Below, piece after piece: positions 10,892-30,608 of a stretch of 32,000 nt of DNA. Origin of the DNA: Candidatus Harpocratesius repetitus (GTDB lineage Archaea > Asgardarchaeota > Lokiarchaeia > Sigyniarchaeales > Promethearchaeaceae); the NCBI GenBank assembly GCA_021498095.1, contig JAIZWK010000001.1, forward strand, positions 4,256,768 through 4,288,767, in the 5' to 3' direction. Positions within the stretch are counted from its first letter, which is position 1, and every line of letters begins with the position of its first letter. The notes under the pieces were generated by a model. The model had not been told where the DNA came from, ran no database searches, and was given only the letters and a program-made list of their open reading frames with translations. The position numbers and the translations under genes are program-made.

Positions 10892-12157
10892 TCAGAAAAA
10901 AAAAATACGCATACCAAGATGAATTTGATTATAATTATCAGATATAGAAAAGATTTCATGCAGATTATTATCATTTAATATTTGAACACCTGGCAAACCA
11001 TCAATACAGCCAATACCTTCGATATTTTCTCTAATGTTAGATGTACTAATTAAATTAGAATTTAAATCGGCATAATATTTTAAATTCTCCATATCATAGG
11101 TCGCTTCAATAATTTCTTTAATATTAAAAACAGGTTCATGGAAATCCTTATCTGTAAGAGTACTTCCAATAAATGTAAAAAGACCTTTATCTTGAAATAG
11201 CACCTTTGTTAAAATTCCATTATTTGCACATGCAATGGCAAAAGATATACCACCAAATGCCCATTCAGAATGGTATGGAGAATTAGAAATCACAATTAAA
11301 AGGGAGTATGATCCATCGAATGTGAATGTTTTGGAGTTTGATTTCAATATTGAAAAATAAATCATTCCAGAATTAGCAGAGAAAATAGGAAAGAGATGCT
11401 TAAACCTCTCAATTATTTCATTTAAATTAATAATTTCTACAGAATCAATCACATTGATAGGTGAGTAGAATCCATCAGAATTCATCATACAATATCCTCG
11501 AGCTATTGCACACCGAGAACATCCCATAATTTTTAGAAAAATTTCATCACTATTTGAATATTTAGAGAGTTTTGTCAAAAGGTTTCCTATATTTTCAAAT
11601 TCTGAAGGATTTTGGTTGGAATGAAACATATGTAAGCCATCCAAATAAGCATATAACTCAGTATTTTTGTTCATATTAGCTGCAGCTTTTAGAAATCGAG
11701 TGCAATAGACAGATGAGCGGCTCATATATGGTCCTTCCAATTGAAAAAAACCGATGTTATGAAGAATTTTGGATAATTTGCTTGTTTCATAATTTAAAAA
11801 GGAGTAATTCTGAGAAATAAGATGATCCCAGAAATCATAAGGAGAATCCCCAATTACATCAATATTTTCAAAAAATTCATTGGACTCATTAGTATTATAT
11901 ATTTTTCTAAAATCCAATCCACGTAATTGAGATTCCCATCCATCAAGCACCCAGAATATTAAATTATTTTTGTTTTTCTGAAATTTCTTTATAATATCTA
12001 TGATTTCTGGGTTGAAAAAAGAAAAGAGTGCTTCACCTGTAATATAAAAATGCAATTCTAACTTATCTTTTAATTGATTTTCATTTGTCAAGGAAAGAAT
12101 TAATTTCATTCTAACAAGAGATATGTAATCAGAAAATAAAAAAAATAAATTCGGCAT
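10892..12157 (-). CDS. three-domain DsrH/TusB-DsrE/TusD-DsrF/TusC-like fusion sulfur-relay protein
   Basis: N: FYITGEAL...FWVLDGWESQLRGL (TusB-like). Middle: GPYMS...YAYLDGLH...NQNP...GCSRCAIARG (TusD-like, Cys retained). C: LIVISNSPYHSEWAFGGISFAIA...VLFQDKGLF (TusC-like). GGAGGA RBS at 12164-12169. Confidence 0.75.
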   Translation of the reverse strand: MPNLFFLFSDYISLVRMKLILSLTNENQLKDKLELHFYITGEALFSFFNPEIIDIIKKFQKNKNNLIFWVLDGWESQLRGLDFRKIYNTNESNEFFENIDVIGDSPYDFWDHLISQNYSFLNYETSKLSKILHNIGFFQLEGPYMSRSSVYCTRFLKAAANMNKNTELYAYLDGLHMFHSNQNPSEFENIGNLLTKLSKYSNSDEIFLKIMGCSRCAIARGYCMMNSDGFYSPINVIDSVEIINLNEIIERFKHLFPIFSANSGMIYFSILKSNSKTFTFDGSYSLLIVISNSPYHSEWAFGGISFAIACANNGILTKVLFQDKGLFTFIGSTLTDKDFHEPVFNIKEIIEATYDMENLKYYADLNSNLISTSNIRENIEGIGCIDGLPGVQILNDNNLHEIFSISDNYNQIHLGMRIFFF

Positions 12158-12204
12158 ATTTATTCCTCCAAAGAGACATTTTAATAAAAAAGAGAATAAG
12201 AATG

Positions 12205-12432
12205 TTATTTCTTTTCAATAGTTAATTCCCACAAACCAGGTTCTAACTTCTTTAATTTGACAGGATATTTCGCTTTCTTCATAGCTCGAGGAATAGTTTT
12301 AGTTGCAGCAGGCGGATGGTCACATTTCACAATGAGAAAATCACCTGCAGAAATTTCTTCTAATTTTTGCTTAACAATTAAAAGGCAAAATGGACATACT
12401 TTTCCAGTAATATCTAATTCATGATTTGTCAT
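12205..12432 (-). CDS. tusA: TusA/SirA-family sulfurtransferase
   Basis: ELDITGKVCPFCLLIVKQKLEEISAGDFLIVKCDHPPA...IP; 75 aa. Confidence 0.9.
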   Translation of the reverse strand: MTNHELDITGKVCPFCLLIVKQKLEEISAGDFLIVKCDHPPAATKTIPRAMKKAKYPVKLKKLEPGLWELTIEKK

Positions 12433-12490
12433 ATATATGCTTCAACTCCTATTGTATTTTAACACTTGTAATATAAAAAATAAAAAAAAC

Positions 12491-12997
12491 TTAAAAAAGA
12501 GAAACAACCCAACTGGCAATGAATAAATGAAACAATACTGCTCCGACCATCATGCCTAAGATGAAGAAAAGAGATTTGACATTACCTTCAAATCCCATGA
12601 CAATTTGCCTCAGAGGACATCCTCCTAACATAACACCCAATAATCCCATTCCAAAACCACCAATAATTGCTAAAATTATATACGCCCAGTTTTCTAATCC
12701 TCCAGGTGCTCCTGGAATTGGAGTAAAAAAACCTTTTTCAGCAGCCCAATAGAAATTAGGAAATGCAGTTCCAATAATCAGCGAAAAGATGAAATAACTT
12801 ACGAAAGCAGAAGCAATTAATGCTAAATAACCAAAAAATAGTCTGGTCTGCTTAAACAAAAATAAATCCCTCATTCCACCAATGGAGCAGAAGCCAGATT
12901 GCTGTGCAAAATAACCAATGATAACACCTAATATAAGAGTCAAGATTGGAACTAAAATCAATACTGCAGTCCCTGTGAAAACACTTTGTAACATCAT
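12491..12997 (-). CDS. YeeE/YedE thiosulfate/selenium transporter family, C-terminal-half protein
   Basis: GVIIGYFAQQSGFCSIGGMRDLFLF and GGCPLRQIVMGFEGN; hydrophobic. ATG overlaps the upstream TAA by 1 nt (TAATG); GAGGAGG RBS. Confidence 0.88.
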   Translation of the reverse strand: MMLQSVFTGTAVLILVPILTLILGVIIGYFAQQSGFCSIGGMRDLFLFKQTRLFFGYLALIASAFVSYFIFSLIIGTAFPNFYWAAEKGFFTPIPGAPGGLENWAYIILAIIGGFGMGLLGVMLGGCPLRQIVMGFEGNVKSLFFILGMMVGAVLFHLFIASWVVSLF

Positions 12998-13530
12998 TAT
13001 TTTGCTTCCTCCTCAATTTGTTTTTTCATTTGAAACAAGACAATTCGGGTTCCTACAAAAACACCCAAAGCTATCGCTAAAATACCTATAAATGCAAGCA
13101 TATCTCCATATGCAAATCTTAAAGCGGCTCGGTAGGGACATCCTCCAAGAAGAAGAGCAAATATCAAAACAAAGATTCCACCAAGGAAATATAATAATGC
13201 CCCTTTAAAGTTTGCCTTTTTTATACGGAATTCTTTATTATTTTTAGCAGCTATAAGTGCTCCGATCATCACACCGATAATACTTAAAGCCGGTGCAAAT
13301 GCAGCTGCAGAAAAAGGTGCAACAACCAATGATGTTCCAAAGATTGAATTGATTAAATCATCCACCATATCTCGAGTGTGACATGCAACGCAAAAACCGT
13401 ATGCTTCAGGACCTCCAGCTGAATATAGAAGAGATTGTAACAATGCAGCTAAAAAACCAATAATCACCCCTAAAAATATCGGCGAGCGAACCATTTTAAT
13501 TAAATTTTTAGACTTGGATTCATCTTCCAT
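12997..13530 (-). CDS. YeeE/YedE thiosulfate/selenium transporter family, N-terminal-half protein
   Basis: GVIIGFLAALL, YGFCVACHTRD, IIGVMIGALIAA...KEFR, GGCPYRAALRFAYGD. Start moved to ATG 13530 behind GAGGA; track gives TTG 13542. Confidence 0.88.
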   Translation of the reverse strand: MEDESKSKNLIKMVRSPIFLGVIIGFLAALLQSLLYSAGGPEAYGFCVACHTRDMVDDLINSIFGTSLVVAPFSAAAFAPALSIIGVMIGALIAAKNNKEFRIKKANFKGALLYFLGGIFVLIFALLLGGCPYRAALRFAYGDMLAFIGILAIALGVFVGTRIVLFQMKKQIEEEAK

Positions 13531-13622
13531 ATCATTCCTCAATATTTTATCCTATAAAAAATTAGATATCAAACGAAATGAACCTATAGAATGTTTTAAT
13601 AGATAGAAAAAAAACAACGTAC

Positions 13623-19833: not shown

Positions 19834-21720
19834 ATGAGATTGTATAATCCGCCTGCAGCGTTACTTCCAAAAGGAGATAAATTTTCAGTAGAATTGGCAG
19901 GGGCTAAAACAATCTTGGCATTAACAGAAGAAAAAGATTTTATTAATATCGCTTCAGTTTTTGATGAATTATCATTAGGTGAATTTTGGAAAGATAATCC
20001 TGCTATTGCTGATCAAATTGAAAAAATTAACATAAAATATGAAGATTCTGATGCACTTTATGATCCAAAGATACTTGCAGAGAGAATTATATCAACAATT
20101 GATAGGATCCGTACGAGAGGTTTAATTTTATTTGGAACTGCGAGTTTTGAAGGGAATGCATTTGAATCTTCTGTTTTTGATGAATTAGAACTCAGTTTTG
20201 AAGATCAAGATCGATTATTAAATCTCTATAAAAAAAGTCGTATTAAAGGTGCTTTTCCAAATGTAAAAAAAGGAATTTCTGGCCTAAATGAATATGTGGA
20301 AATAAATTGGTTTGGGGATGCTTCAAAATTCTTTACTTTAACAGATAAAAAGGACTTAAATGAAATTGCAGCAATGACATATCCATATGAAGGAACTGTT
20401 ACTGGAATAGTTGCTGTTGCTCAAGGTGCTGCAAATTTTATTATTTTAACAGACACAATTTTTAAAAAAACAGATTCTGCTCAAATTCATATAGATAAAC
20501 GTAATTTAAATCAGATGTTTAAACTACTAAATAAAGGAATCTTATCTGCACCTATTTCATGGTTTAAAATTGATTTAGGATATAAAGGTTTGCAATCTTT
20601 AGAAGGTTGGGATGAAATTAAAGATCTCCCTGAAGTTAAAAAAGCTATTGCAAGTTATCGCGATTATCATCGAAGCTTAATTATTCAAAAGGAAAAAAAG
20701 ACAATTGAAAAGATATTAGATGAAGATTTGGGCAATCCAATCGATTTTTCGAAATTAACAGAAGAAGAAATTGAAGATGATTTAGAACAAATAATGGCAA
20801 CCTTAAATCGACTAAATGAATTACAAATGAGCAGTGTAGAAGAAAGCTTCTTGTATGATCCTCCTAAAATTCTTTTTAGCCAAGCAAGTTCTAATTTGGC
20901 ACCAATTGGAGGTGCAATGAGTTTATTATCAATTGATGTCGGTCAAAATATTAGTTGCGTCGCTTCATTGCGAGAAAATGTTTCATGGGGAGAATTTCTT
21001 TGTGATGATGAATCTCAAGAATTAGATGAAGAAACATTTTTTGATATCCGAGAAGATCAAGATTTTTTTGAATTAGAAAACCCAATTCAACTGAGAGATA
21101 TATATACTAAAACTTTTCAAAATATCATGCGAGGAAGTGAGTTATTTTTAGGTTTATTAGAATTAGAAGCAAACAGTTTTGAATTTAGTTTATTTCAAGA
21201 ACTTCCACTTGAAGAGACTATTTTAAAAAAATTACAAGAATCATATCATTTGAAAATACGACAGGGAAAATACCCCCAACTTAAAGATCGACATATAAAA
21301 ATAATCTGGAAAGGTAAAGGTAAACAAGTATTCACATTTCCGAATTGTTTTCCAAGTATTTTAGATATTGCACAAACAATTTTTTATGATAAAAAATATC
21401 ATGATAAATATTTTACAGGAATCGTTTGTGTGGATGAAAACTCCACTTATTTCTATACGCTGACAAATAACATAAAAGAAGAAAACAAAAAAGTAGATCA
21501 AACAACTCTAAAACAGCTTTTTGAGGATTTAAATAAATCAGAGATTGCTTTGTTATGTTGGTTTAAAATTAATCTTGGACTTTCATCTTTGAAAAATCAT
21601 CCTTATTGGAAAGGAGCAATGAACTATGATAGTCTTCAATATGTCTTAGAAAATTATAAAAAATACATGAAGACTTTAATTGAACAAAAAAAAAAGGAAG
21701 ACCAATACCGAATCTATTAA
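19834..21720 (+). CDS. hypothetical protein, two tandem copies of an unrecognised ~280-aa domain
   Basis: 628 aa. Copies begin MRLYNPP (aa 1) and FLYDPP (nt ~20848) and share G-x-FE-x-N-x-FE, EIxWxG, GIV, WFKIxLG and Y-x-x-Y...K-x-KE motifs. Confidence 0.85.
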   Translation: MRLYNPPAALLPKGDKFSVELAGAKTILALTEEKDFINIASVFDELSLGEFWKDNPAIADQIEKINIKYEDSDALYDPKILAERIISTIDRIRTRGLILFGTASFEGNAFESSVFDELELSFEDQDRLLNLYKKSRIKGAFPNVKKGISGLNEYVEINWFGDASKFFTLTDKKDLNEIAAMTYPYEGTVTGIVAVAQGAANFIILTDTIFKKTDSAQIHIDKRNLNQMFKLLNKGILSAPISWFKIDLGYKGLQSLEGWDEIKDLPEVKKAIASYRDYHRSLIIQKEKKTIEKILDEDLGNPIDFSKLTEEEIEDDLEQIMATLNRLNELQMSSVEESFLYDPPKILFSQASSNLAPIGGAMSLLSIDVGQNISCVASLRENVSWGEFLCDDESQELDEETFFDIREDQDFFELENPIQLRDIYTKTFQNIMRGSELFLGLLELEANSFEFSLFQELPLEETILKKLQESYHLKIRQGKYPQLKDRHIKIIWKGKGKQVFTFPNCFPSILDIAQTIFYDKKYHDKYFTGIVCVDENSTYFYTLTNNIKEENKKVDQTTLKQLFEDLNKSEIALLCWFKINLGLSSLKNHPYWKGAMNYDSLQYVLENYKKYMKTLIEQKKKEDQYRIY

Positions 21721-21760
21721 GGAAAAAACACCATATATACTACAAAGAAGGAGATTAGTA

Positions 21761-24133
21761 ATGAAATTATTTTATCCCCCTCCCCAATTATTTGATATTG
21801 ATCGGAAACAAATTTCCCTTTATCGATTGAATTCATTGATGATTGCAGTAGATCAGAATAAGAATTTAATTAATGTTAGGGATATTATTCACCCCTCAAT
21901 CTGGATTTCATTTTGGGATCAATATAATAAAGGAATTCCTAAAGATCAAATCCATATTATAAAAGAAGAGGATTCACAAGTCAATTCAGTATTGAGGTTA
22001 GGAGATCAAATAATTCAGGGCTTAAATTATATTATGACCAAAGGTTATATTTTTTTAGGTATTTTAACTTTTACTGAACAAGTTCAAGATCCACAAATTT
22101 TAGAAGACTGGGGATTTTTCAAACGTAGAAAAAAATACTTTAACGATTTAATTACAAAATATTACGAACAGCCGATTACACCTCAAATTGAAGAAAGATC
22201 GTATGTTTTTGCTAAATTCTTAGGAGTAGGTGAAAAATTCTTTACTTTTTCACAATTAAATCAAGTTCAAATTGCTCAAATGTCTTCTTATTTCCATGGA
22301 AATCTACATGGAGTAGTAGGTCTTAAAGAAAACACACTTCATTTTATGTTACTGTCTCAGAACATAAGCAAACATGAAGAAAGTTCAGATTTAATTATGG
22401 ATAAAAGAGGGAGAGATATTTTAATTAATTTAATTAAATCAAAAGAATTTATACCGGCAGCGGCTTTTCAATTTGATTATGGTATTTCTTCTTTATATAA
22501 AATAAAATTTGAAGGAATTAATTTATGGAATGCAATGGAATTATTACCTCAATACTCCAAACCAATGAAATTATATCAACAATATCTTCAAGCATTAATT
22601 TTTGATAAACCACTACCAATTAAACGAGTAGAACTCCCTCCTCCCTTTTTAATTGAAGTTCCTACTTTTACTAAAGAAGAAAGAATGCTCAGTCCAGAGG
22701 AATTATTAGAAGAAGAAGAAAAAGGGAAAACACAATCAAAACCTGATATTTCATCTGAAACTCCACAAAGAGATATAAAAGATAAAGAACAAAAAACAAA
22801 TTTAGATAATATTGAAAAAATTTCACCTATTACTCATTCTGAACAATTGAAAACGCCAGAATTACCACAAAAACCACAAGTTTCTACATTAAAACTTAAC
22901 AAAATTTCTCTTGATAAACCTCAACTTAAACCAATTAAACCTTTAAATCCCCAAAGTTCATCAGTTTTAGAAGAAGAATATGAAGATATTTTTAATAGAA
23001 CAAAAGAAAAAATTCAATTATTTGATGAAAATGGAAAAGCTATTATTAATCCAAATGAAATAGATTCTGTAATGTCTACGTTTTCTGAAGAAATCATGCG
23101 TGAATCTGGAAAGATGATAAATCCTTCAATTATGACGAAAGATGAAATATTTAAAGATCTTGAAGCATCTTTAAAAGCTTTATCTCAATTAGATGAACTT
23201 GCACAAGATGATCAAGCAGTTAGTCGTATTTATTATCCTCCACTCTCATTGATTTCAAATGCTTCTAAAGAAGGAATGGCAATTGGGGGATCAACTGTTA
23301 TTGTGAGTATCGGAACAGGAAAGAACCTTTGGATGGTACCCGAAATAAAAGGAACCCAAATGTGGGGAACTTTCTACAAAGATTCAGAATTAAGCGATCA
23401 ATTTGAAGATTTCATCGCTTTACAAGAAAAGGAAATTGAATCTATTGAAGATTTTGAGTTATTTCTTCAAAATGCATTTGTACGTATTCGTTCTAATAAT
23501 CAAGTCTTTCTTGGAATCTGCGATTTTGAAGCTAACGGATTTGAAAGAAATGTTTTTGATCCTGAATTAATGTTGGATTCAAGCGATCTCCAAAAATTAA
23601 TGGAAATACATCAAAAAAAAAGGGAGAATATGCAATTTCCTGAACTTGAAAAAGAACAATGGATTGAAATTAGATATTATGGTAATTCAGAGATTATAAA
23701 ATTCTTTACTGATCCAAATATAACAAGTATTTTAGAAATTGCCAAAAGTTCTACGGAAAATATTGTCTTTAGGAAAGGAAAAATAGCAGGTATTGTTTGT
23801 TTAGATGAAGAAGCCGCATATTTTTTCATTTTAAGTGATAATTTAAAATTCTTAAATGGTGAAAAAGAAAAATTCATTATAGACACAAAAACATTAGAAA
23901 AAATGTATCAAATGATTGAAGAAATGGATTTAACACCTGCTTCTTTCTGGCGAATTTCGTTTGGATTTAATAGTTTTAAACAATTAGAACGATGGGATGA
24001 GATTAAAAAAGGAATCATTTTCCCTATAATAAAAGAAAATTATGAGAAATATCTTGCTAAATTATTAGAAATTAAAGAAAAAGAAGATCAGATTCGAAAT
24101 TCTGCAGAACAACGATTTCAAATAAAAAAATAA
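21761..24133 (+). CDS. hypothetical protein paralogous to 19834..21720; two domain copies separated by a ~200-aa low-complexity linker
   Basis: Start moved to ATG 21761 (MKLFYPPP) behind AAGGAG; the track start 21680 overlaps the upstream gene. Second copy begins RIYYPP (nt ~23225). Confidence 0.85.
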   Translation: MKLFYPPPQLFDIDRKQISLYRLNSLMIAVDQNKNLINVRDIIHPSIWISFWDQYNKGIPKDQIHIIKEEDSQVNSVLRLGDQIIQGLNYIMTKGYIFLGILTFTEQVQDPQILEDWGFFKRRKKYFNDLITKYYEQPITPQIEERSYVFAKFLGVGEKFFTFSQLNQVQIAQMSSYFHGNLHGVVGLKENTLHFMLLSQNISKHEESSDLIMDKRGRDILINLIKSKEFIPAAAFQFDYGISSLYKIKFEGINLWNAMELLPQYSKPMKLYQQYLQALIFDKPLPIKRVELPPPFLIEVPTFTKEERMLSPEELLEEEEKGKTQSKPDISSETPQRDIKDKEQKTNLDNIEKISPITHSEQLKTPELPQKPQVSTLKLNKISLDKPQLKPIKPLNPQSSSVLEEEYEDIFNRTKEKIQLFDENGKAIINPNEIDSVMSTFSEEIMRESGKMINPSIMTKDEIFKDLEASLKALSQLDELAQDDQAVSRIYYPPLSLISNASKEGMAIGGSTVIVSIGTGKNLWMVPEIKGTQMWGTFYKDSELSDQFEDFIALQEKEIESIEDFELFLQNAFVRIRSNNQVFLGICDFEANGFERNVFDPELMLDSSDLQKLMEIHQKKRENMQFPELEKEQWIEIRYYGNSEIIKFFTDPNITSILEIAKSSTENIVFRKGKIAGIVCLDEEAAYFFILSDNLKFLNGEKEKFIIDTKTLEKMYQMIEEMDLTPASFWRISFGFNSFKQLERWDEIKKGIIFPIIKENYEKYLAKLLEIKEKEDQIRNSAEQRFQIKK

Positions 24134-27876: not shown

Positions 27877-28584
27877 ATGGCGTTATCATCAATTGAAGAA
27901 GCAAAAAAAAAAGCAGGTTATGCTGCAGTGGATGAATTTGTTCAAGATCATATGATATTGGGAATTGGAAGCGGGTCTACAGTTGTATATGCCGTAGAAA
28001 GATTAATTCAAAGAGTAAAAGAAGAAAATCTGCAAGTAATTTGCATTCCAACATCTTTTCAATCAACTCAACTTATTGTTAAAGGGGATCTTTATTTAGG
28101 AACTCTTGATCAATATCCTGAAATTGATGTAGATATTGATGGTGCAGATGAAGTTGATAACCAGCTGAATTTGATTAAAGGAGGAGGAGGATGTCATGTG
28201 CAAGAAAAAATTGTTGCAGGAAACAGTAAAAAGCTGGTTATTGTTGCTGATTATCGAAAAGAATCCGTAAATTTGGGAGAACAATGGAAAAAAGGAATCC
28301 CAATAGAAGTAATCCCATTTGCATATGTTCCTATACAAAAAAGAATTGAAAAATTAGGAGGAACATCTGTATTAAGAATGGCTAAAAATAAAGCAGGTCC
28401 AATTGTTTCAGATAATGGAAATTTCATTCTTGATGCAGATTTTGGTATAATTAAAGATCCTGCTAATTTAGATTTGCAATTAAAAAAGATTCCAGGAGTT
28501 GTTGAAACCGGTTTATTTGTTGGAATGGCGGTTAAAGCATTTTTTGGACAAAAAGATGGAACTTTAACCACACGCTCTCTATAG
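27877..28584 (+). CDS. rpiA: ribose-5-phosphate isomerase A
   Basis: GIGSGSTV, DGADEVD, IKGGGG, QEKIVA, DNGNFILD, IPGVVETGLF. Confidence 0.97.
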   Translation: MALSSIEEAKKKAGYAAVDEFVQDHMILGIGSGSTVVYAVERLIQRVKEENLQVICIPTSFQSTQLIVKGDLYLGTLDQYPEIDVDIDGADEVDNQLNLIKGGGGCHVQEKIVAGNSKKLVIVADYRKESVNLGEQWKKGIPIEVIPFAYVPIQKRIEKLGGTSVLRMAKNKAGPIVSDNGNFILDADFGIIKDPANLDLQLKKIPGVVETGLFVGMAVKAFFGQKDGTLTTRSL

Positions 28585-28695: not shown

Positions 28696-29541
28696 TTATT
28701 CAAACATCGAAATAATTGGCCGTAGTTTAAAGAGAGATACAGGTCTGGTATATTTTGTTTTTTCCCTCATTTCAAGTTCTGCCCCATATAATTCCATAAA
28801 TCTTCGTGTAAATGCTTGCAATTCTATTCGTAATTCAATAGAAGATTCATCACAAACAAGTATCGAAGTAATATAATCATTTTGTTCAAACATTATATCA
28901 TAATAATCTTTTTCTATATAACGCAAATCTCCAGAATTTTGTAAGACTTCATCGGTAATTTTTTCAATTGCTGAAAGAGTTCCACCAAGTAAATCTATGT
29001 ATTTCTCAGCAACATCATCCCTAAATAAATAATTTGCCAAAATTAAACCAGTTTTACTTTCTTGAACACAAATCATGATGGGTTTTCCTTTTGGAAGAAT
29101 ATCAGTCGTCCAAGCAATAACATCTTTAGTAGAAATAATTCCAATTGGTTGTCCTTTCTCATTTCCTACAACAACTCTTTTGTATCCTTTTGTATTCATA
29201 AAATGAACAACATCATCAATTGGTGTGTTTTTTTGTATAATTGGAATCGGCCCCCGCATTAATTCTTTCGCCTTAATTTCTGCAAGAGAGCGTTCTAAAG
29301 ATGGTCTTTCATTATTTTTATTCTGAGATTTATTGAATTGCGCTAAAAAATGCACGATTTGACGATGAGAAATGATATAATATTTAGAAAGGTCATCAAT
29401 ATCTTCAATAATTACTGCAGATATCATCTTTTTATCCATTAATGCTACTACATCTAATAACGAATCTGACTTTTCTAATAAATATACTCCGACATGTGCA
29501 ATATCTGCCGCAATTAAGCCGTAAGTCGGTTTTCTCGTCAT
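28696..29541 (-). CDS. CBS-pair (Bateman) domain fused to a C-terminal longin-like domain
   Basis: CBS2: KAKELMRGPIPII...VVHFMNTKGYKRVVVGNEKGQPIGIISTKDV. aa 153-281 show a beta-beta-alpha-beta-beta-beta-alpha-alpha pattern including GLILAN and DLLGGTLSAIEKITDE. Confidence 0.75.
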   Translation of the reverse strand: MTRKPTYGLIAADIAHVGVYLLEKSDSLLDVVALMDKKMISAVIIEDIDDLSKYYIISHRQIVHFLAQFNKSQNKNNERPSLERSLAEIKAKELMRGPIPIIQKNTPIDDVVHFMNTKGYKRVVVGNEKGQPIGIISTKDVIAWTTDILPKGKPIMICVQESKTGLILANYLFRDDVAEKYIDLLGGTLSAIEKITDEVLQNSGDLRYIEKDYYDIMFEQNDYITSILVCDESSIELRIELQAFTRRFMELYGAELEMREKTKYTRPVSLFKLRPIISMFE

Positions 29542-29633
29542 AAATTTACTCCCGATACCTCTTTATAAATATGTCTAATGCTAATCAAAATACAGAAGAT
29601 TTTATTCTTTTGGAATTTTCATTTTCTTGTAGA

Positions 29634-30608
29634 ATGAGAACCAGTATTCGATATTTCTTGGCATTTCTCGCCTATTTCATTTGGGGGTTAACATTCCCAT
29701 TTGCAATACAAGTCATGCCTCCATTATCTTCATATAGCTTTGTGTTTTTACGAACTTTGATGGGCAGTATTGTATTACTTATCTTTTTGGGAATTAAACG
29801 AGAAATTTTAGAATGGTTTTCTTCCTTTCGCGCGCATTTTAAAGCCCTCTTCCTATTTGCTTTAGGTCCTTTTACGTTTTCATATATTTTACAATTTTAT
29901 GCGATTCAGTTTACTTCACCAATTAATCAATCAATCATTGCTCAAACTTCTATTATTTGGGTTATTGTTCTGAATTATTTCTTTTTTCATCAGAAACCGC
30001 ACTTAAAATTTATTATCGGAGTAATTTTAGCAATTATTGGAGTTATTCTTCTTATTACTGGAAAAGGGCTAACTTTATCACCAGACACAATTAAAGGAGA
30101 TCTTCTATCTATAATTGCTTTTATCTCATGGGCGGCGTACAGCTCCTTTTCGAAACCAATATCTGAAAAGATGCCACCTCTATATTCGATTACTTCAATC
30201 CTTTTAATAAGTACTGTGATTCTATCAGGATTTGCATTTGGAACAGGATTAACGGATCAAATTTCTCAGTTATCAGAAATTCAATGGGGGATAATGATAT
30301 ATTTGGGAATAATTTGCACTGGTTTGGCATATGTTCTTCATCTTGTAGGTGTTGCAGGTGAAAAAGTAAAAACAGAATATGTAGTATACACAGGTTTTAT
30401 AATGCCTGTAGTATCTACTATTTACAGTGTTATCTTTTTAGATAAAATATTTACAAATAGAATGCTTCTGGGGGGGATTCTAATTATGTTTTCTGCAGTT
30501 ATTGTTCAATATCAAAATCAGAATAAAGAACAATCATCTCAAGAAAATAAAAAGCAATCACCTCAAGAAAATAAAGGACAATCATTATTGATCAATTGGA
30601 TCAGATAG
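29634..30608 (+). CDS. EamA/DMT-family transporter
   Basis: IWGLTF, FVFLRTL, GIILAIIGVILL-like segment, GDLLSIIAFISWAAYS, YLGIICTGLAY; about 10 TM helices. Start is ATG 29634 or 29571. Confidence 0.92.
   Translation: MRTSIRYFLAFLAYFIWGLTFPFAIQVMPPLSSYSFVFLRTLMGSIVLLIFLGIKREILEWFSSFRAHFKALFLFALGPFTFSYILQFYAIQFTSPINQSIIAQTSIIWVIVLNYFFFHQKPHLKFIIGVILAIIGVILLITGKGLTLSPDTIKGDLLSIIAFISWAAYSSFSKPISEKMPPLYSITSILLISTVILSGFAFGTGLTDQISQLSEIQWGIMIYLGIICTGLAYVLHLVGVAGEKVKTEYVVYTGFIMPVVSTIYSVIFLDKIFTNRMLLGGILIMFSAVIVQYQNQNKEQSSQENKKQSPQENKGQSLLINWIR
30531..30584 (+). repeat. 24-bp coding tandem repeat, about 2.25 copies, in the EamA tail
   Basis: CAATCATCTCAAGAAAATAAAAAG CAATCACCTCAAGAAAATAAAGGA CAATCA, encoding QSSQENKK QSPQENKG QS. 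Confidence 0.8.

Follow-up and report, generated by a model that had tools for sequence, protein, structure and literature searches.

A CBS pair joined to a predicted longin domain in a lineage-restricted protein of Asgard archaea

Can a single archaeal protein connect the sensing of a metabolite to the machinery built around small GTPases? The question is raised by a gene at positions 28696-29541 (minus strand; 281 codons, with the stop at 28696-28698, as given by the ORF list and translation) of the window, by which we mean the whole 32-kb stretch of DNA analysed here, from the closed, 4.36-Mb genome (G+C ~30%) of Candidatus Harpocratesius repetitus. Its product, hereafter CBS-longin, carries a CBS pair at its N-terminus and a domain of predicted longin fold at its C-terminus. 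An earlier note on this DNA had read the combination as a link between energy charge and GTPase signalling, parallel to the eukaryotic route from AMPK to Rag/TORC1.

Asgard archaea encode longin, roadblock and small-GTPase genes by the dozen, rarely in operons (Tran et al. 2024, PMC10933270); with the genes so scattered, pairing a GTPase with its regulator is difficult. Longin-GTPase and roadblock-longin proteins have been described from these organisms (Tran et al. 2024, PMC10933270; PDB 8yqg), and Liu et al. (bioRxiv 10.1101/2020.10.19.343400) reported an NPRL2-like longin fused to two-component signalling domains, for which a link to nutrient regulation was proposed. The expansion of longins in Lokiarchaeota, longin-GTPase fusions and NPRL2-like longin-signalling fusions are already published, and CBS-longin is a further architecture of a diverse family. 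A fusion of CBS and longin in archaea was not found in the searchable literature, and CBS is absent from the main texts of PMC10933270 and bioRxiv 10.1101/2020.10.19.343400. CBS-longin resembles the other Asgard longin proteins in its fold, its lineage-specific expansion and its modular use beside sensor or signalling modules; it differs from them in that the partner module is a CBS pair and that the subfamily is confined to two families of one order.

A conserved gene with a canonical CBS pair

Eleven close homologues (46-97% identity) align with CBS-longin end to end, covering 100% of its length, and begin at the same N-terminus (MTRKP...), which shows the gene to be real and constrained. 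The labels of these homologues read Promethearchaeota or Ca. Lokiarchaeum ossiferum, and the protein is conserved in Promethearchaeales. The annotated orthologue of Ca. L. ossiferum (P0011, locus L001:6001-6849; 48% identity) bears the NCBI name 'HPP family protein'. Only CBS was detected in it, the membrane HPP domain being absent, and the name looks like a mis-transfer. A TATA-box-like octamer (TTTATAAA; 29562-29569, minus strand), read directly from the sequence, lies ~24 nt upstream of the ATG of CBS-longin, a position suggesting that the mRNA may be leaderless or have a short leader. A look through sequencing runs turned up four DNA runs with the locus, of which one may be the source sample, and no RNA run. 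The gene product is best explained as a soluble two-domain regulatory protein.

Its N-terminal half is a canonical CBS pair at residues ~12-147, in agreement with the earlier note, which had placed such a pair at residues ~10-148. The Pfam CBS profile (PF00571) matches in two stretches (E 3.2e-14; 53.4 bits against a cut-off of 24), the full-length model contains two beta-alpha-beta-beta-alpha units (residues 19-75 and 82-144), and this half superposes on solved CBS pairs (Foldseek: 2ef7_A, E 8.6e-7, TM by target 0.73). Compared with PDB sequences, the full-length protein matched CBS proteins only. CBS motif 1 (residues ~12-66; 29344-29508, minus strand) was delimited by Pfam, the secondary structure of the model and column counts. 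A linker rich in Lys, Asn and Ser (residues 67-87; 29281-29343, minus strand), poorly conserved and variable in length in the alignments, separates it from CBS motif 2 (residues 88-147; 29101-29280, minus strand), which holds the best Pfam CBS stretch (91-143) and is delimited by column counts and PDB CBS matches as well.

Canonical CBS motifs touch the ribose and the phosphate of adenosyl ligands. CBS2 has such a motif in full, G-I-I-S-T-K-D (Gly134, Ser137, Asp140), which recurs across 47 relatives as G-[VI]-[IVL]-[ST]-x-[KR]-D (Gly134 in 40/41, Asp140 in 35/42), and its Lys121-Arg122 pair is conserved among relatives. At the ribose site of CBS1 most relatives keep [ST]-H-x-D; CBS-longin reads I-I-S-H-R-Q, with Gln61, also present in its nearest kin, at the position where Asp stands in 27 of 39 relatives. 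Since canonical ribose- and phosphate-site motifs are kept, the predicted ligand of the pair is most likely an adenosine-containing metabolite.

The layout is that of CBS-effector fusions such as IMPDH, ClC channels, MgtE and HibA, in which a Bateman module with canonical G-h-h-S/T-x-x-D motifs sits beside an effector, and the genome's own ClC-CBS and HTH-CBS proteins follow the same sensor-effector logic. What sets CBS-longin apart from such fusions is its effector, a longin fold, and the lack of an evident kinase or ribosome-binding partner. Besides CBS-longin, the genome has five CBS genes, all of ordinary types: one is IMPDH-like, one encodes a CBS pair standing alone, two encode ClC-CBS and HTH-CBS, and one encodes a CBS protein that may include a membrane region. 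No clear module of a CBS gene and a GTPase was found among the six. CBS-longin has a single Bateman module, as against two in both AMPK-gamma and HibA. AMPK-gamma, with four CBS motifs in two Bateman modules, forms a complex with the kinase alpha and beta subunits. Its match to CBS-longin was at E ~0.2, and the four CBS motifs of the AMPK-gamma type are not present. With two CBS motifs instead of four, and with no adjacent small-GTPase, roadblock or longin gene, the proposed parallel to AMPK-to-Rag/TORC1 signalling found no support specific to this protein.

Fold of the C-terminal half

The full-length AF2 model (pLDDT 64) placed the helix of the C-terminal domain poorly, and a fold search of the PDB with it returned CBS proteins only, which is why we folded the C-terminal domain (residues 148-281, 134 residues; 28699-29100, minus strand) on its own, using an alignment of 45 sequences. 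Relatives were gathered by an exhaustive HMMER search, which yielded 254 hits, ~40 of them with the same C-terminal domain. The resulting AF2 model (pLDDT 83.5, pTM 0.79) has strands at residues 154-161, 167-172, 208-211, 214-220 and 224-230 and helices at residues 178-201, 235-261 and 274-280 (protein numbering), with helix 1 as the region of lowest confidence (pLDDT 58-64). The first strand has no helix before it and the last is followed by two, which is the longin order of elements as in Tran et al. 2024 (PMC10933270). The segments behind the CBS pair to which longin topology had been ascribed beforehand are the same ones, and they appear in this order in the model.

Comparison of the model with 48,161 chains by VIA-align placed longin domains at every one of ranks 1-16 (Z 12.6-9.9), in alignments spanning residues 6-134 of the model. 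Sec22 (Sec22b) ranked first (Z 12.6; 115 residues, 2.3 A), and high scores were likewise obtained for Fuzzy/CPLANE (11.8), VAMP7 (11.7), sedlin (11.5), SRX (11.1), synbindin (11.0), and AP mu/sigma and delta-COP (~10-10.7). Roadblock proteins lay below the longins (MglB 9.4, LAMTOR ~8). Solved Lokiarchaeota longin and Rag-like structures matched the domain too (8yqg_B, Z 8.6; 9m28_A, Z 9.8). Foldseek, a comparison proposed in the earlier note, pointed to the same families and gave Sec22b (1ifq_B) as the best match, with a TM of 0.73-0.76 and an rmsd of 2.9 at an E of only ~2e-3. As modelled, the C-terminal domain has a genuine longin fold, of the type seen in Sec22, sedlin and TRAPPC1. The name longin suits it better than roadblock: roadblock structures rank lower, and the model has no N-terminal helix.

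Sequence comparison was less telling. No Pfam cut-off was passed by the domain, the best score being that of Robl_LC7 (PF03259; 15 bits, E 0.02, against a cut-off of 23), and the longin-family profiles (PF13774 Longin, PF04628 Sedlin_N, PF19036 Fuz_longin_1) had no hit in CBS-longin. Across 45 relatives, scattered sub-threshold Pfam matches were to Robl_LC7, Fuz_longin_1 (a single one, 0.011) and Sedlin_N (a single one, 0.051). Searches of PDB sequences with the single sequence and with the 45-member profile stayed at chance level (RGD1 0.02, roadblock 0.27-0.77). With a broader profile that included the paralogues of the genome, the first-ranked PDB sequence was yeast Bet5/TRAPPC1 (E 0.025 and 0.056), whose ~95 aligned positions keep register between strand 1 and helix 2; this match is below significance and merits the word suggestive. 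A feature search of the ESM Atlas led toward Asgard roadblock/longin-like clusters, with values of 0.78-0.86, all below the lead level of 0.9.

Helix 1 bears the signature L-x-G-G-x-L-S-A-I-x5-E, which across paralogues becomes L-x-S/G-G-x-L-S-A-I-x5-E, and a small-residue-rich helix 1 is common to CBS-longin and Bet5/TRAPPC1. Longin GAPs of the FLCN, NPRL2 and SMCR8 type have a catalytic arginine finger on this domain; in CBS-longin, Arg238 is near-invariant within the subfamily and not conserved across paralogues. The nearest eukaryotic counterparts of the domain are the longins of the SNAREs Sec22b, VAMP7 and Ykt6 and of the TRAPP subunits TRAPPC1, TRAPPC2 (sedlin) and TRAPPC4 (synbindin). 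Unlike these proteins, CBS-longin has no SNARE motif and no neighbouring TRAPP partners, and its sequence match stands at E 0.025; its N-terminal CBS pair is found in no eukaryotic longin protein within the match lists. The likeness extends to longin-containing GAPs and GEFs of Rag, Rab and Arf (CPLANE Z 11.8, Mon1-Ccz1 9-9.6, C9orf72-SMCR8 8.0, a SEA/GATOR subunit 7.9), and a conceptual link to nutrient sensing is common to CBS-longin and GATOR1 NPRL2-NPRL3, FLCN-FNIP, C9orf72-SMCR8, Mon1-Ccz1 and CPLANE. In contrast to these complexes, CBS-longin has no DENN or accessory domain, and no partner longin gene lies nearby. A prediction with two full-length copies scored 0.38 for the homodimer, against a mark of 0.42 and 0.00 for the controls, a result that weighs neither way on dimerisation.

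A modular longin family and its genomic context

Searching the whole genome with the profile of 45 C-terminal domains located family members at 20 places, and the profile that included paralogues located ~48 ORFs, a number similar to the 41 longin domains counted in Lokiarchaeum by Klinger et al. 2016, as cited in PMC4917890. At least five are TPR-array proteins with a C-terminal longin; others are free longins of ~130-170 aa, a giant surface protein of 3031 aa and several proteins whose N-terminal regions have no annotation. Within the family, only CBS-longin is fused to CBS. Helix 1 is the most conserved segment among paralogues whose N-terminal modules are unrelated, and its conservation in spite of these differences suggests a common macromolecular interface. 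That the longin is fused to sensor, scaffold and membrane modules (TPR, MFS, V4R, the surface protein), and once to a GTPase, fits a shared role as adaptor or output domain.

Several individual members stood out in the whole-genome searches (genome coordinates throughout). The only GTPase fusion found among the 48 members is an ORF of 300 aa (2163601-2164503, minus strand), in which an Arf/Ras-like GTPase domain comes after a longin at residues 26-132. Two MFS transporters have a longin-family domain at their cytoplasmic C-terminus (217795-219405, minus strand; 4125608-4127227, plus strand), the match at the second crossing one TAA near its end. A protein of 285 aa (1449422-1450279, plus strand) combines in one chain both kinds of fold that make up the TRAPP core, an N-terminal longin and a C-terminal V4R (Pfam E 1e-5, below the cut-off). 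A longin protein of 284 aa (1297671-1298525, minus strand) is divergent from a Ras/Roc-like GTPase gene (1298703-1299377, plus strand) across a gap of 178 bp, with genes for a radical-SAM/B12 protein and an HTH_3-CBS regulator downstream. Many paralogues have the motif [WF]-x-G-[DNQE]-x3-F after helix 2, in place of which the CBS-longin subfamily has a longer basic linker.

Structural look-alikes of the domain in other archaea are fused to response-regulator receiver and V4R domains. No longer proteins containing the C-terminal domain were returned by a single-sequence search, and the proteins returned by the family profile, whose results are weak evidence on this point, were TPR-longins or unannotated, with no CBS-longin-GTPase fusion. 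In a sample of 301 genomes of the Asgard phylum, the full CBS-longin architecture was present only in two sister families of one order. Full-length matches came from 5 of the 6 genomes of the window's family and from 12 of the 69 of the sister family, in which many near-complete genomes are without the protein. Outside these two families only the longin part matched, within longer proteins; profile matches from beyond the order (families f9, f16 and f24) comprised the longin domain and no CBS. Given this restricted and patchy occurrence, the fusion is a lineage-restricted, dispensable invention.

In the window, the CBS-longin gene is monocistronic. It is convergent with rpiA, for ribose-5-phosphate isomerase A (27877-28584, plus strand), and divergent from a gene for an EamA-family transporter (29571-30608, plus strand), both assigned by Pfam; argS, GNAT and dut/dcd lie beyond. 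The true start of the EamA gene is probably a later Met, because its relatives are 314-318 aa long. Synteny with rpiA and EamA holds in relatives of CBS-longin at 62-64% identity, and adjacency to rpiA is kept down to 48% identity (Ca. L. ossiferum) and absent in more distant relatives. The genes flanking members at 30-37% identity are unrelated to these (methyltransferase, epimerase, hydrolase, acyl-CoA dehydrogenase, CitMHS transporter, HTH regulators). In another family of the order (L041:4346-5659, plus strand, and likewise L040 and L042), the convergent neighbour of CBS-longin is an EamA fused to an AsnC-type ligand-binding domain, which is not orthologous to the EamA of the window. The window's genome has only 7 EamA genes.

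Elsewhere in the window, Pfam gave no match at E 0.001 for two large adjacent ORFs on the plus strand (19834-21720 and 21680-24133; 628 and 817 aa). A region on the minus strand (10892-13542) encodes a DsrE-like protein of 421 aa beside a sulphur-transport YeeE/YedE-like gene that is split into two abutting ORFs (12491-12997 and 12997-13542), with a LysR-type regulator divergent from it.

No GTPase, roadblock or further longin gene is present in the 32-kb window, and no GTPase or roadblock gene stands beside CBS-longin in any of 14 loci (the window and 13 related ones); the neighbours at the 13 related loci are housekeeping or variable genes. The genome has 13 roadblock proteins and ~59 small GTPases; the small GTPase nearest to CBS-longin is encoded 41.5 kb away. 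For the family as a whole, a GTPase or roadblock gene occurs no more than 2 kb from 6 of the best 20 paralogues, against 1.8 expected (permutation p ~0.007), and from 7 members of the 48-member set, against 3.4 expected (p ~0.05). The 2-kb threshold was chosen after inspection of the data, and we therefore treat the adjacency as weak. This agrees with MK-D1, in which GTPase genes generally lie outside operons with roadblock or longin genes (PMC10933270).

Possible roles of CBS-longin

CBS-longin holds both folds in a conserved order, has a narrow distribution and belongs to a large, modular longin family. Our preferred, still tentative, explanation is a ligand-regulated adaptor in which the CBS pair receives the input and the longin platform delivers the output. 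The single Bateman module at the N-terminus would sense an adenosine-containing metabolite, and the longin domain would serve as the output, by analogy with other CBS-effector fusions. As a protein-docking platform, the longin may become more or less accessible to a partner depending on ligand occupancy of the CBS pair; candidates for that partner are the ~59 small GTPases and other proteins with a longin, roadblock or V4R domain. For such an adaptor, we infer the class of the ligand, the allosteric coupling and the identity of the partner.

Counted in favour of the adaptor are the CBS and longin folds themselves, the Bet5 match, the modular fusions of the family and its proximity to GTPase or roadblock genes somewhat above expectation, together with the receiver and V4R fusions of look-alikes in other archaea, the published Asgard fusions of longins with signalling domains (bioRxiv 10.1101/2020.10.19.343400) and the description of roadblock/longin dimers as GTPase platforms (PMC10933270). 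Several observations count against it: no GTPase tie is specific to CBS-longin, with the nearest gene 41.5 kb away and 13 related loci devoid of one; no longin or roadblock Pfam cut-off is passed; Gln61 replaces the ribose-binding Asp in CBS1; the adjacency of the family to GTPase genes is marginal (p ~0.05, n=48) and depends on a post hoc threshold; and the full-length model has a pLDDT of 64. A further count against it is that CBS pairs also bind other ligands, such as SAM, c-di-AMP and metal ions, or nothing. As for the claim that the protein ties energy charge to GTPase signalling, its architectural part is borne out and its functional part gained no support particular to this protein. At the level of the family, one Arf-like GTPase fusion and an adjacency slightly above chance point weakly to a GTPase link. 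A still more specific reading, which we consider improbable, would make CBS-longin a metabolite-gated GEF, GAP or scaffold for an Asgard small GTPase and thus a minimal single-chain counterpart of GATOR1/FLCN-FNIP nutrient sensing.

The adaptor has one serious competitor, doubtful as it is, in a GTPase-free regulator of the stand-alone CBS type, whose longin-like domain would serve only for dimerisation or stabilisation, or would form a small-molecule pocket like those of GAF/PAS domains. Roles of longins away from GTPases include those in SNAREs, in the small subunits of AP and COPI, and in SRX. The lack of GTPase context at every locus examined speaks for such a regulator, as does the position of most of the 48 family members away from GTPase genes; the breadth of the longin fold class, with its many non-GTPase roles (PMC4917890), and the low confidence of the model in helix 1 lean the same way. 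However, the top structural matches are protein-docking longins rather than ligand-binding GAF or PAS domains, the conservation of helix 1 across paralogues suggests a shared macromolecular interface, and one paralogue is fused to a GTPase.

CBS modules act in cis in ClC, MgtE and OpuA, and by analogy CBS-longin could be a cytoplasmic regulator of transport, with the longin docking on an EamA/DMT or MFS-type carrier and the CBS-sensed metabolite tuning the contact. We regard this as unlikely. In its favour, CBS-longin is divergent from an EamA gene both in the window and in close relatives, a non-orthologous EamA with an AsnC-type domain is convergent in another family, EamA genes number only 7 in the window's genome, and two MFS-transporter paralogues end in a longin of the same family. 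Yet EamA adjacency occurs in only two of ~eight lineages and in differing orientations, it is lost in Ca. L. ossiferum and at most loci of the sister family (f2), and operon structure is absent. We also know of no precedent for an interaction between a longin and a transporter, which counts against this reading.

Identity of the C-terminal domain as a roadblock/MglB-type fold, which would make the protein a CBS-regulated MglB-like GAP, is very improbable. Its only Pfam hint is Robl_LC7 at E 0.02, and roadblock proteins do reach VIA-align Z scores of 8-9.4; the order of elements is nevertheless that of a longin, with no helix before the first strand and two after the last, 16 longin structures rank above the best roadblock, and the Pfam score stays at 15 bits against 23. 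We rejected this identity on topology. The archaeal ribosome-hibernation factor HibA has a CBS module and a C-terminal ribosome-binding alpha/beta domain (PMC13324472), and a reading of CBS-longin as its short relative has next to no likelihood. In both proteins a CBS module comes first and an alpha/beta domain of ~120 aa follows (PMC13324472), and CBS chains of large complexes are among the PDB sequence hits, though through their CBS parts only. Against the reading, the CBS motifs of CBS-longin number two and its longin fold is five-stranded, HPF/RaiA structures are missing from the top 50 fold matches and from the profile hits, and PF02482 was not found in the genome; we rejected it on fold and CBS number.

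The ligand-regulated adaptor is the explanation we keep. CBS-longin is small and soluble and combines a longin with a well-understood sensing module, which makes it experimentally tractable. If the longin output proved to be ligand-gated, the protein would show how eukaryote-like folds were wired into prokaryotic metabolite sensing.
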